Made by a program: the position numbers. From a virus (taxonomy: Duplodnaviria; Heunggongvirae; Uroviricota; Caudoviricetes), in IMG/VR virus record IMGVR_UViG_2531839234_000010: 8,688 bases of DNA, one strand, 5' to 3'. Numbering within the stretch: position 1 is the first letter of the stretch; each line of letters starts with the position of its first letter. Below, one piece after another: positions 6,001 through 8,688 of this stretch.

Positions 6001-8688
6001 TGAAAGACGCTTTACAAGTTCATCCATCGCCTGACTCGATGCGTCGATGGTTCCGCTTTGGATTGGTTCACGCATTTCATCCATGATTTCCAGCACCAGA
6101 CGGCGGTGATAGTTATCCGCGACCATTCCGGCATATCCCTTCAGGTTTGCGGCACTCGGGCAGTTTTTGCTGGTCATCAGGATTGACGTGAAATGCTCCT
6201 CTCCGCACGCCTCGGCAACCATCAGCGCATCGATTAGGTTTCTGTTTCTCGCCTGCTTGCGAATAACCTCGAAGGCTTTCCGGTAGAGCGGAATTGAAAA
6301 CGCTTCCGGCTCCAGCGTTGCCAGAACGTCACTGGCGGTTGGAGTTAATCCACCAATCAGCAGGCCACCGATAACGCTAGCTTCGATATCCTGTCTCATG
6401 CAATCCCCCTGTCTGCAAACTTCCCTTCCCGAACTCCCGTTAACGAATCTTCCCTCAGCAGGTAATCAAAATCTGCCGTCCAGCCCGTGTCGTTGTCTCC
6501 GAAGTAAAACGGCTTGGCCTGATGCACAAACGCCCTGACATACGCTCTGAAACCGTCCACGTTTGGCGTTTTCAGTTGCGGGATAATTTTCTTCAGGCGG
6601 CGTTTTCGTTTCTCGTTGACCGCAACAGCGTGTGGAAGTCTGTCACCGACTTCGGTGTTGTAGGCGTTCAGGAAGGATTCGTAGTCGATTCGTTCTGCCT
6701 TGCGACGTTCAGGTTTAACCTGCCCATCGCCATCCCCGTTAGGGGGTAAGGGGGTATTTGTATTTATTGTCTTTTGTATATTGTCTTTTGTGTTTAGCTG
6801 ACTTGGCTTATACCCATTAGCCGACTTGGCTAATGTTTTATTAGCTGTTTTAGCTAATGTTAAGCTGTCCTGGCTAATCCACTGAGAAACCACCTTGTTC
6901 ACTCCGATTTTCACGCCATCAGCAATGAGGAATTTACGCTCAATAAGCTGGCGCTTGGCAGCGCAAACATGAGTGTGATGAATACCTGTCATGGCTGCTA
7001 TCTGCGTGTTTGTGAGTCGATCCATCGGCTTATTGAATCCGTATGTCTTGCGCATGATAGCGAGCATCACCTTCAACTGCCGGACGGTTAAATCAGCCAT
7101 CAGCAGACTGTCGGTAATCTCGTTAGCAACGCGCATGAAACCATCTTCGGTATCTGCCACGCGATGCTCCACGACCTCCAGTTGAGGCCTGTAATCAGCT
7201 AACTTAACGACGCCCATGTTTCACTCCTGCTTTGGCTAGTCTGTAAACACCAACAAGGCGCTCTGCGAACGCCCTGTTATTTGCTGCGGCTACCACTAAT
7301 CCCTCAGGTGAATCAGGGTGTCGAATCTCTTCTTTTTCCTGGTATTTCTTACGACGTTTTGTCATAATTACTCCTGTGGATTGATCCAGTAATTCCCTCA
7401 GAATTGCATATCAATTTGCTTAAAATCCTCGGTGGCAGCCGGGGATTTTTTCTTTGTGATTTCATCAAGCGCATACTTAAAAGCCCTGCTAATCGGACTG
7501 ATGTCTGATGCCATTCCGAAAGCACACAAGACCGAAGCAATAAACCGCCAGTCCGTTCTGCTTATCTTCGATTCATGACAGCCAATCATCTTTGCCAGAC
7601 CGCGCTGTGTAAGCGTTGACAGGTTGATGAGTAAATCTGTTTCTGCGCGATCAACGTCGCGCTGTGATAGTTTGCTGTAACTTGTTCGTTCCATTTCTTA
7701 AGATTTCCAATAGTGAATAGTTAGTTGAAAGGTATGCGTGGAAACGCATATGGCCTTAGTTGGTCAGATATCTTGGGACTCGCTTTTCAGCGACGTAGGA
7801 CGAATGTCCGTTGTTACAAAGAGCGGCTCCGCTTATTAAGCGGCTTTGTGCTCCGGCGGGAACACGTCATCAAGACTTACTTTTGCGCCTAACTTGTTTA
7901 GACACGCAACAAGAGCACGGCATGTTTTAAGGTCTGGGAAGCGACGACCAGATTCCCAATGTCCGATAGCTCCCTGTGTGCATCCAACTGCCTTAGCAAG
8001 TGTTGTTTGAGAGATATTCAGTGACTCTCGATATTTTCGTAGGTTGCTCATATGCCCTCCATAGTAACCATGAATAAAAAAATACAATATGTACTTCTCA
8101 AATACAAGTAAAAATACACATTGTGCATGGATGGTTCCAGTACAGAGCGTAATAATAAGGACATGAAAATGAAATGGTATGAACTGGCTAGATCCAGAAT
8201 GAAAGAGCTCGGCATAACTCAAGAGAAGTTAGCCGAAGAGCTAGGTATGACGCAGGGTGGAATTGGACACTGGTTGCGCGGATCTCGTCATCCATCTCTT
8301 AGTGATATTGGTGTGGTGTTTAAATACCTTGGTATTGATAACATATCATTCAACCACGACGGGACATTTTCACCTGTTGGCGAATACTCATCGGCCCCAG
8401 TTAAAAAACAATATGAGTACCCTGTTTTTTCTCATGTTCAGGCTGGGATGTTCTCTCCAGAACTCAGAACCTTTACCAAAGGTGATGCGGAGAGATTGGT
8501 AAGCACAACCAAAAAAGCCAGTGACTCTGCATTCTGGCTTGAGGTTGAAGGTAACTCAATGACCGCACCAACAGGTTCCAAACCTAGTTTTCCTGACGGG
8601 ATGTTAATTCTGGTTGACCCTGAGCAAGCTGTTGAGCCCGGCGATTTCTGCATAGCCAGACTTGGTGGTGATGAATTTACCTTCAAGA

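Follow-up and report, generated by a model that had tools for sequence, protein, structure and literature searches.

In phage lambda, cII ends at position 38653 and O starts at position 38686, in such a way that just 32 bp, holding no gene, separate them. In other phages a small gene is found in this place. HK97 gp53, Sf6 gp42, ES18 gp58 and epsilon34 gp49 are members of one such family (PHROG 1331), located between cII/oop and the replication initiator gene and overlapping the start of the latter by 14 nt. This gene was already discussed in the literature (PMC3349717; Hayes et al.). The family carries the label 'unknown function' in its PHROG entry and 'hypothetical protein' in 97 phage records, the latter also being the PGAP label in the E. 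coli rows listed; no experimental or functional study of the gp53 protein was found in the literature, including that on small ORFs beside cII and O. Phage P22 has in the same slot orf48, which is small (48 aa) and basic, starts from the same conserved Shine-Dalgarno (SD) sequence and ATG over the oop promoter, and is followed by gene 18, for an O-like initiator whose start is overlapped 8 nt by the orf48 stop, and by gene 12, for a DnaB-like helicase. Small upstream cistrons whose stop codon overlaps the start codon of the gene coupled to them are found in bacteria and phages in general.

The stretch of DNA analysed here (the window, 8,688 nt) has the same arrangement, and its features are collected in Table 1. 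The preliminary description had pointed to a basic ORF of 53 aa with a good ribosome-binding site, on the minus strand, filling a cII-O gap of 180 bp and overlapping the O start by 14 nt, in a slot where lambda has no gene. All of this was confirmed. From the limits of the cII-like and O-like genes, the gap extends over 7218-7397, the overlap over 7204-7217 (ATGGGCGTCGTTAA), and the ORF (ORF53) starts with ATG and encodes a 6-kDa protein, MTKRRKKYQEKEEIRHPDSPEGLVVAAANNRAFAERLVGVYRLAKAGVKHGRR, with a computed pI of 10.7 and a net charge of about +8.

Table 1. Positions of the small gene, its signals and its neighbours in the window.
Feature	Position	Strand	Basis or remarks
DnaB-like replicative helicase, third gene of the module	5023..6399	-	PF03796 (E 1e-77) and PF00772
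O-like replication initiator	6396..7217	-	PF04492 (E 6e-33); 51% identical to P22 gp18 from residue 10 onward
ORF53, 53-aa basic protein, HK97 gp53/PHROG 1331 family	7204..7365	-	ATG ORF listing and PHROG 1331 match
AGGAG SD of the O-like initiator	7224..7228	-	In ORF53 (codons A46-V48), with 6 nt to the initiator ATG (7215-7217)
Conserved hairpin in ORF53, codons N30-V38	7251..7279	- (mRNA strand)	Core of 8 bp and GCN triloop at 7256-7274
33-nt 'boundary sequence' (bsq5 in the Sf6 record; 'sequence 5' in the HK620 comparison)	7358..7390	-	Mosaic junction on the left of the cassette
Inferred extended -10 element (TGTCATAAT) of the oop promoter pO	7360..7368	+	Homology with lambda
AGGAG SD of ORF53	7371..7375	-	5-nt spacer to the ATG; homologous to the lambda O ribosome-binding site
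oop-like antisense RNA, two stem-loops, with terminator at 7422-7449 followed by a T-run	7376..7455	+	Terminator scan, fold and lambda oop homology
cII-like transcriptional activator, variable upstream neighbour	7398..7694	-	PF05269 (E 6e-32)

What did not hold was the idea that the gene had escaped notice. The search against small-protein profiles that had been proposed gave a full-length match to PHROG 1331 (E 1.4e-37, residues 1-53 covering all 53 positions of the profile), and the product is 100% identical to HK97 Gp53 (NP_037738), Sf6 gp42 and others, with 94-100% amino-acid identity between the window copy and the four phage proteins named above. As judged from these identities, ORF53 is an already annotated gene and not a new one; it shows no difference from the HK97 gp53 family, of which it is a typical member, and the annotations of HK97, Sf6 and HK629 place the gene, as in the window, between the oop/cII-like gene and the initiator, on the same strand as the latter and overlapping its start. 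As the result of a scan it is thus an ordinary, correct call. The term 'lineage-specific', also used in the preliminary description, turned out to be too narrow, since ORF53 belongs to a mosaic cassette spread across lambdoid and P22-like phages of many Enterobacterales: carriers include HK97, Sf6, ES18, epsilon34, Stx phages and phages of Cronobacter, Enterobacter and Erwinia, and the gene is present in 571 of 5426 complete E. coli genomes, about one in ten.

The size of ORF53 does not by itself exceed what is expected by chance, because ORFs of 30 aa or more number 98 in the window; it is conservation that lifts it above chance. The frame is intact in 338 of the 339 related loci, including genera where the protein has only 57-65% amino-acid identity, both the ORF and its SD are intact in 17/17 divergent genome loci, and copies of unequal length in the protein alignment differ by whole codons, with frame and stop kept. 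The loss of frame in related phages that the preliminary description had named as an argument against the gene was thus not seen. Diversity at the three codon positions is 0.24/0.17/0.50, the third positions varying 2-3 times more than the first and second, and dN/dS against the window copy ranges from 0.08 to 0.30. The 80 viral loci with a 100% identical protein were left out of this last calculation, because picking by protein identity forces all differences to be synonymous. The pN/pS ratio lies between 0.24 and 0.30; by segments it is 0.19-0.36 everywhere except in the N-terminal basic head (0.56), and in codons 10-29, where no known element overlaps the gene, it is 0.24, versus 1.7 and 2.2 in the other two frames. 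Synonymous diversity (pS) is 0.355 in the last 8 codons versus 0.62-0.72 elsewhere, and the amino-acid conservation of FAER (codons 33-36) may be partly shared with the RNA hairpin described below. These substitution patterns, the check proposed in the preliminary description, indicate that the ORF53 frame is under purifying selection and protein-coding.

The start site of ORF53 consists of the SD sequence plus ATGACAAA, and lambda uses the same site for O. The sequence before the start is CCACAGGAGTAATT-ATG, and the lambda O start, in an alignment with lambda, HK97, Sf6 and P22, shows the same AGGAGT(C/A)ATTATGACAAA; GGAG or GAGG at this SD is kept in most divergent loci listed. Homology with the lambda O start thus covers SD, ATG and the five bases that follow, and the oop RNA and its promoter have the same relation to this start, but in lambda it leads directly into O, without a small ORF, whereas in the window ORF53 begins there and the initiator 148 nt beyond, with a second SD. 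The putative -10 element of pO is the complement of ATG and ACA, the first two codons of ORF53, and in the P22 record the oop promoter is annotated over the start of orf48. This promoter was not called by a consensus promoter scan of the window, because its -35 element is weak. The oop-like RNA would be antisense to the 3' end of cII, ending just before the ORF53 SD, with its 5' end placed by homology alone. It has a fold energy of -30.2 kcal/mol (z -3.9), with 0/200 shuffles as good, and an oop-like annotation exists in HK629 and P22.

Sharp limits were detected at both sides of the gene. Identity to the window starts exactly 25 nt before the ATG in 79/80 viral loci, and in 40/80 of them the right junction lies 17 nt past the ORF53 stop. 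The Sf6 record carries its bsq5 annotation at the position corresponding to the left junction. The same 33-nt boundary sequence served to align 23 lambdoid phages (PMC3349717). The position of these junctions indicates that ORF53 is inherited as a sharply bounded cassette of ~200 nt that includes the first 10 codons of the initiator (MGVVKLADYR in the window). It is found combined with two initiator bodies that are unrelated, with two subtypes of helicase and with upstream genes of several kinds.

The two initiator families that follow it share just their first 10 aa, M[GS]VVKLADYR, and a DnaB-like gene comes after the initiator in 328/338 ORF53 loci, several of the exceptions being loci that end early. 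Essentially every copy has the ORF53 stop overlapping the initiator ATG by 14 nt (ATGnnnnnnnnnnTAA): the overlap is -14 nt in 96/98 loci and -17 nt in the other 2, an ATG is found at stop-14 in 116/122 unique ORF53 sequences, and GGAG or GGGG is found at the initiator SD in 16/16 diverged sequences. The genes upstream at other ORF53 loci encode a P22-c1-type CII, a YdaT-like protein, an ANT/KilAC protein or a beta-clamp-like protein. As these neighbours indicate, ORF53 travels with the replication initiator and not with cII. Homology of P22 orf48 to ORF53 was rejected, since hhalign of the family alignment gave a probability of 0.05 (E 0.83) and the alignable part is limited to the first bases (ATGnCAAA). 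We regard orf48 as a probable positional analogue and not as a homologue.

A hairpin was found on the mRNA strand inside ORF53, being the sole consensus structure detected de novo in 45 diverged sequences. It is of 8-13 bp (13 bp and -17.6 kcal/mol in the window), with 95% of the hairpin cells paired. Its covariation score is 0.387, versus 0.274 in shuffles (0/500 reach it) and 0.02-0.13 in slid controls, and 10.8 of 13 pairs are kept versus 9.1 under resampling of synonymous codons; about 4 independent double changes appear on a tree. The hairpin, with its compensatory base changes, appears to be undescribed. Rfam gave no match in 7204-7365, and an analogous hairpin is not evident in P22 orf48 (z -1.7). 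A fusion of ORF53 to the initiator by hairpin-stimulated frameshifting was rejected, as stop codons in the initiator frame lie between the hairpin and the ATG.

The AlphaFold2 model of the protein (pLDDT 68) predicts a disordered region at residues 1-20 and helices at 21-29 and 31-49. In the peptide there would be a disordered head rich in Lys and Arg, an acidic stretch, HPDSPDGL as a conserved motif, a pair of amphipathic helices and a tail of basic character. Scans of ORF53 with Pfam, NCBIfam and PADLOC gave no match, a sequence profile search of the PDB returned nothing other than a chance match at E 5.6, and Foldseek of the model against PDB and BFVD gave nothing usable. When 1.84 billion representatives were searched exhaustively with the profile, 24 proteins were recovered, all of them family members or fragments, and neither remote homologues nor fusions to known domains. 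The likeness to lambda N, an arginine-rich-motif RNA-binding peptide, is a general one (a basic head and a nearby hairpin), and membership of this type was rejected, having in mind that there is no Pfam or PHROG match to N and that the loop is a GCN triloop and not the GNRA-like pentaloop of boxB. The genes of the ORF53 module are not mentioned in PMC9836094, which deals with co-transferred genes.

Taken with the gene order, these data support that ORF53 is probably a real gene for a translated small protein, of the HK97 gp53/PHROG 1331 family, and the first cistron of a P22/HK97-type replication module. The module would be read as small ORF, origin-binding initiator and DnaB-like helicase, by rightward transcription from pR after cII. 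From the geometry of the overlap alone we infer translational coupling, by which ribosomes finishing ORF53 would be handed to the initiator start, in addition to the initiator's own SD within ORF53; this SD being a good one, the initiator may not depend on ORF53. ORF53 resembles the small coupled cistrons mentioned above in its overlap (ATG...TAA, 14 nt) and in having the SD of the downstream gene inside it. Compared with a pure coupling device, in ORF53 the sequence of the peptide itself is conserved. The 6-kDa peptide could act as an accessory of replication initiation, as suggested by gene order and co-inheritance alone, which in mosaic phages may also come from recombination history. Different initiators and helicases would be served by one identical peptide, for which a host factor or a nucleic acid is therefore a likelier partner than the phage initiator body. 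An RNA-level layer could be added to this scheme by the conserved hairpin.

Other explanations were weighed against this one. That the open frame is a by-product of conserved non-coding signals could be proposed because four such signals overlap ORF53 (oop promoter, boundary sequence, hairpin and initiator SD/start) and chance ORFs are numerous in the window, but we hold this to be extremely improbable, as it is already contradicted by the intact frame in 338/339 loci, the whole-codon length differences, the excess of third-position changes and a pN/pS of 0.24 in the signal-free part versus >1.7 in the other frames. The cassette could also be kept mainly as homology for swapping immunity and replication modules between lambdoid phages, with an incidental or weakly functional ORF. 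The 162-nt ORF is indeed identical at the nucleotide level in 66/80 viral loci while the flanks differ, 566/573 E. coli records are at least 99% identical, the junctions at -25 and +17 nt are sharp, the left one coinciding with an annotated boundary sequence, and two CII types are linked to two initiator types by one and the same cassette. However, a pure homology patch would not retain the reading frame, the SD and the exact stop/start overlap, and in other genera the protein is still kept near synonymous saturation (pS 0.62-0.72), so that this explanation is distinctly unlikely.

Two further proposals concern regulation. Lambda CIII, of 54 aa and with an amphipathic helix, shields CII from FtsH. 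ORF53, which would resemble it in size and helical character, comes directly after cII and adjoins the oop promoter and RNA, so it could modulate the lysis-lysogeny decision with CII, in a CIII-like way or by otherwise tuning the cII/oop circuit. The gene stays instead with the initiator, whatever its upstream neighbours are (two CII types, YdaT-like, ANT/KilAC and clamp-like genes), and no family search gave CIII or another named family; an FtsH inhibitor of CIII type was rejected on this account, and the modulator role in general is very unlikely. ORF53 could alternatively be a regulatory leader ORF or attenuator, in which its translation and the internal hairpin matter and the peptide is secondary, the amounts of initiator and helicase being set by ribosome traffic through the hairpin or by a fold pairing ORF53 codons 15-21 with the initiator SD/AUG. 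In favour of it, the sense-strand hairpin is kept with compensatory changes, and its flanks, A-rich on the 5' side and U-rich on the 3' side, where Leu/Phe/Val/Ile codons account for the U-rich stretch, recall a weak intrinsic terminator. The stop/start overlap does not vary, and the mRNA of the entire ORF53 (fold z -3.7) pairs GAUUCACCUG with the initiator SD/AUG, a pairing possible in 82% of cells over the 45 sequences, a count biased by the structure having been derived from one of them. By contrast, the hairpin was not called by the terminator scan, the long-range fold hiding the SD/AUG shows no covariation (0.065 versus 0.068 in shuffles), RNAalifold retains the local hairpin alone, and purifying selection on the peptide goes well beyond the hairpin and the overlaps, as seen in codons 10-29. 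An attenuation leader with a dispensable peptide sequence was accordingly rejected, since selection acts along the whole peptide, and the attenuator in its broader form is unlikely.

For the small protein gene of a replication module that we favour, a more specific proposal can be made, which we consider quite unlikely. ORF53 and its hairpin might form a single cis/trans regulatory unit of the module, in which the Lys/Arg-rich head of the peptide would bind the hairpin of its own mRNA and feed back on the expression of initiator and helicase, or in which the passage of ribosomes would gate transcription or translation into the initiator. Either regulatory version, if true, would link the dosage of the replication genes with translation status and with the convergent pO/oop system. 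Or else ORF53 could inhibit a replication protein of the host with which these phages can now dispense, as it occurs only with phage-encoded DnaB-like helicases. The experiments to be done are narrowed by its real coding nature, by its tie to the initiator and the phage DnaB-like helicase and not to cII, and by the conserved internal hairpin.

The gene is common, being present in Stx-converting phages, HK97, Sf6 and ES18, and occupies the first position of the replication module. Were the peptide or the hairpin to control initiator dosage, this would be a regulatory layer in lambdoid replication control that lambda lacks, and it could bear on the induction and replication of Stx prophages. The window DNA around ORF53 is 100% identical to that of the Stx2-converting phages 1717, YYZ-2008, 2851 and Nil2, among others.

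The 53-aa minus-strand ORF between the cII-like gene and the O-like initiator gene (ORF53) encodes a strongly basic protein (computed pI of 10.7). Its position, AGGAG motif, the 180-bp cII-O gap and the 14-nt overlap with the O start (ATGGGCGTCGTTAA) are all as stated in the preliminary description, which also noted that lambda has no gene at this place; indeed, the cII-O gap of lambda measures 32 bp and holds none.

Features of the window around ORF53 and in the nin and antirepressor regions
Feature	Position	Strand	Basis or remark
ORF53, basic protein of 53 aa	7204..7365	-	ATG start, ORF listing
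AGGAG Shine-Dalgarno (SD) of ORF53	7371-7375	-	5 nt before ATG
CII gene, upstream of ORF53	7398..7694	-	PF05269, E 6e-32
O-type initiator, downstream of ORF53	6396..7217	-	PF04492, E 6e-33
DnaB-like helicase, after initiator	5023..6399		Pfam-level domain match
13-bp mRNA-strand hairpin, codons 30-38	7251-7279, core 7256-7274	-	-17.6 kcal/mol
oop promoter -10 element TGTCATAAT	7360-7368	opposite to ORF53	inferred by homology
oop-like RNA	7376 to ~7455	+	putative extent
oop-like RNA terminator	7422-7449	+	terminator scan
'Boundary sequence' bsq5 of Sf6 record	33 nt around ORF53 start		record annotation
Dam-type N6-adenine methyltransferase	3152-3706	-	PF05869
NinB	3676-4224	-	
Lar-like restriction-alleviation ORF	within 4079-4522	-	
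C4 antisense RNA	2751-2834	-	Rfam, 66.7 bits, above gathering score
isrK	2897-2949	-	Rfam, 74.7 bits, above gathering score
sRNA-Xcc1	2860-2936	-	Rfam, 79.3 bits, above gathering score
c4 a1b1 target	1753-1836	-	Rfam, 45.9 bits, slightly under gathering score (46.7)
ORF6N/P22AR-type antirepressor-like genes	1034-1714, 1970-2698		
ANT/KilAC gene	237-965		

The coding capacity of ORF53 was studied in 339 fetched loci, which comprise 122 distinct DNA sequences and 78 distinct proteins. The frame is intact in 338 of them, and the copies differ in length by whole codons, in such a way that frame and stop are retained. The frame is also intact in each of 17 loci that come from other genera of the Enterobacterales, with amino-acid identities of 57-100% and, in nearly all of them, GGAG or GAGG before the ATG. 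Substitutions follow a purifying pattern, with a dN/dS of 0.08-0.30 against the window copy and a mean pairwise diversity of 0.24, 0.17 and 0.50 at first, second and third codon positions, the third being the most diverse. Among 45 representatives (<94% identity), pN/pS was 0.24 at codons 10-29, where no other signal overlaps, and 1.7 and 2.2 in the other two frames. These data therefore reject the last-ranked rival, in which ORF53 is no gene and arises only as a by-product of non-coding signals. ORF53 is a real small gene, as the preliminary description had proposed, and it is protein-coding and conserved. The single frameshift (locus L334, IMGVR_UViG_3300012248_000001, ~1501-1700) is a 1-nt deletion near the ORF53 3' end that creates a natural in-frame fusion with the initiator; alternatively, it could be a sequencing error.

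The gene was already annotated and treated in print, and hence known before. The DNA around it matches several Stx2-converting phages at 100% identity and HK97, where the counterpart is annotated as Gp53, at 99.3%, and PHROG 1331 ('unknown function') covers the protein end to end (E 1.4e-37). Hayes et al. (PMC3349717) discussed an orf absent from lambda, naming HK97 gp53 and P22 orf48 as examples. The 'blind spot' claimed at first was therefore one of the ORF track then in use, not of the field. A tblastn search located the protein in 97 phage records, among them Sf6 gp42, ES18 gp58, epsilon34 gp49, g341c gp44 and many HK/mEp coliphages, and its exact sequence is present on at least 1000 contigs of a large protein collection, as 'hypothetical protein' or 'prophage protein'. 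Of 5426 complete E. coli genomes, 571 carry it, at a nucleotide identity of at least 99% in 566 of 573 matching records and, among the matches listed, under the annotation 'hypothetical protein'. What remains of interest is its function, its strict tie to phage-encoded helicase modules and an internal hairpin. Copies were also found in a 'Bacillota bacterium' MAG (JAEZIN010000021.1, 100% amino-acid identity, with a P22-c1-type CII gene, Pfam Phage_CII) and in 'Chryseobacterium sp.' (CACSKA010000001.1, 83%), overlapped in both by the initiator gene; for both contigs, contamination or mis-binning is more probable than a genuine host beyond Enterobacterales.

An initiator gene and a DnaB-like helicase gene form a module in which ORF53 comes as the first cistron, and the overlap between its stop and the initiator start is invariant. 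This overlap measured 14 nt in 96 and 17 nt in 2 of the first 98 loci examined, and an ATG lies at stop-14 in 116 of the 122 distinct sequences. In the loci examined the following gene is always a replication initiator, which belongs either to the PF04492 O/gp18 type (the case in the window) or to the Sf6 gp43/HK022 type; these two families have no more than the initial 10 residues (M[GS]VVKLADYR) in common. The helicase gene comes next in 328 of 338 loci, several exceptions being cases where the locus end was reached. The upstream neighbour varies (P22-c1-type CII, HK97/lambda-type CII, YdaT-like, ANT/KilAC or clamp-like protein). The edges of the shared cassette in phages of E. coli and Salmonella are sharp and mosaic, the left one 25 nt before the ATG and the right one 17 nt past the stop in 40 of 80 viral loci. 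The identical peptide thus works beside different initiators and helicases.

Alignment with lambda, HK97, Sf6 and P22 places ORF53 on lambda's O start site and oop promoter, with its SD, ATG and next bases (AGGAGTAATTATGACAAA) homologous to those at which lambda O begins. This start opens O in lambda, ORF53 in the window and orf48 in P22. By homology, the same bases would double as the oop -10 element on the opposite strand, consistent with the P22 annotation and with a pO -10 mutation that lies 2 bp away from O's initial codon (PMC3985674). The oop-like RNA folds into two stem-loops (z -3.9). P22 gp18 is 51% identical to the window initiator from residue 10 onward. The orf48 before it is unrelated to ORF53 (hhalign probability 0.05) and likewise overlaps its initiator, by 8 nt. 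A small basic ORF ahead of an initiator with its own helicase thus seems to be a position that at least two unrelated families occupy. The P22 RefSeq record calls orf48 (850-996 in the P22 locus) a 'tail protein', an implausible name for 48 aa encoded between c1 and gene 18 that probably stems from erroneous annotation transfer.

The hairpin segment occurs in 68 distinct versions, which retain 9-13 of its 13 pairs, with a mean of 10.8 against 9.1 after synonymous-codon resampling and 10.2 after column-wise synonymous shuffling, more than the amino acids force. It was the sole structure predicted by RNAalifold (45 diverged sequences, 239 columns); in its 8-bp core 95% of the cells are paired and covariation reaches 0.387, versus 0.274 in shuffles (0/500 reach it) and 0.02-0.13 in slid controls. 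In one pair, position 1 of codon 32 (Ala, Pro or Ser) faces the silent third base of Arg36 (C-G 20, G-C 10, G-U 7, U-G 4, U-A 1, mismatch 3), and a tree of the remainder of the gene points to around four independent double changes. Because G-U pairs are frequent, it is specific to the mRNA strand. The terminator scan of the window did not call this hairpin, apparently undescribed so far, and a frameshift fusion driven by it was ruled out. The whole ORF53 mRNA (7190-7385, minus strand) folds at z -3.7, with the anti-SD-like GAUUCACCUG (codons 18-21) paired to the initiator SD/AUG; across the family, 82% of cells would permit such pairing, yet covariation is absent.

The AlphaFold2 model from the family alignment (pLDDT 68) predicts that the basic head (residues 1-20) is disordered and that two helices span 21-29 and 31-49, and the conserved core reads EE-x-R-HPDSPDGLV-x-AA-x-N-x-x-FAER-[LF]-[VI]-G-x-x-RLAKAGVK-x-GRR. 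Family, structure and remote-homologue searches with ORF53 returned nothing with a functional lead. The coupling to O proposed earlier stands as an observed 14-nt geometry, and ORF53 would be translationally coupled to the initiator. We infer an accessory role in replication initiation, independent of the initiator body, so that the partner would likely be a host factor or nucleic acid.

The foremost rival is a regulatory leader or attenuator using the hairpin; the conservation of the peptide speaks against it. A recombination linker, ranked next, may account for the near-invariance among phages of E. coli and Salmonella but leaves the protein conservation in other genera unexplained. Behind it ranks a CII/CIII-type lysogeny modulator, against which the linkage data speak.

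Elsewhere in the window, a typical set of nin-region genes follows the helicase (3152-4522, minus strand). The Rfam matches adjoin the antirepressor-like and ANT/KilAC genes, and these RNAs and genes together resemble an antirepressor control region of the P1/P7 immI style, set in a lambdoid nin region.
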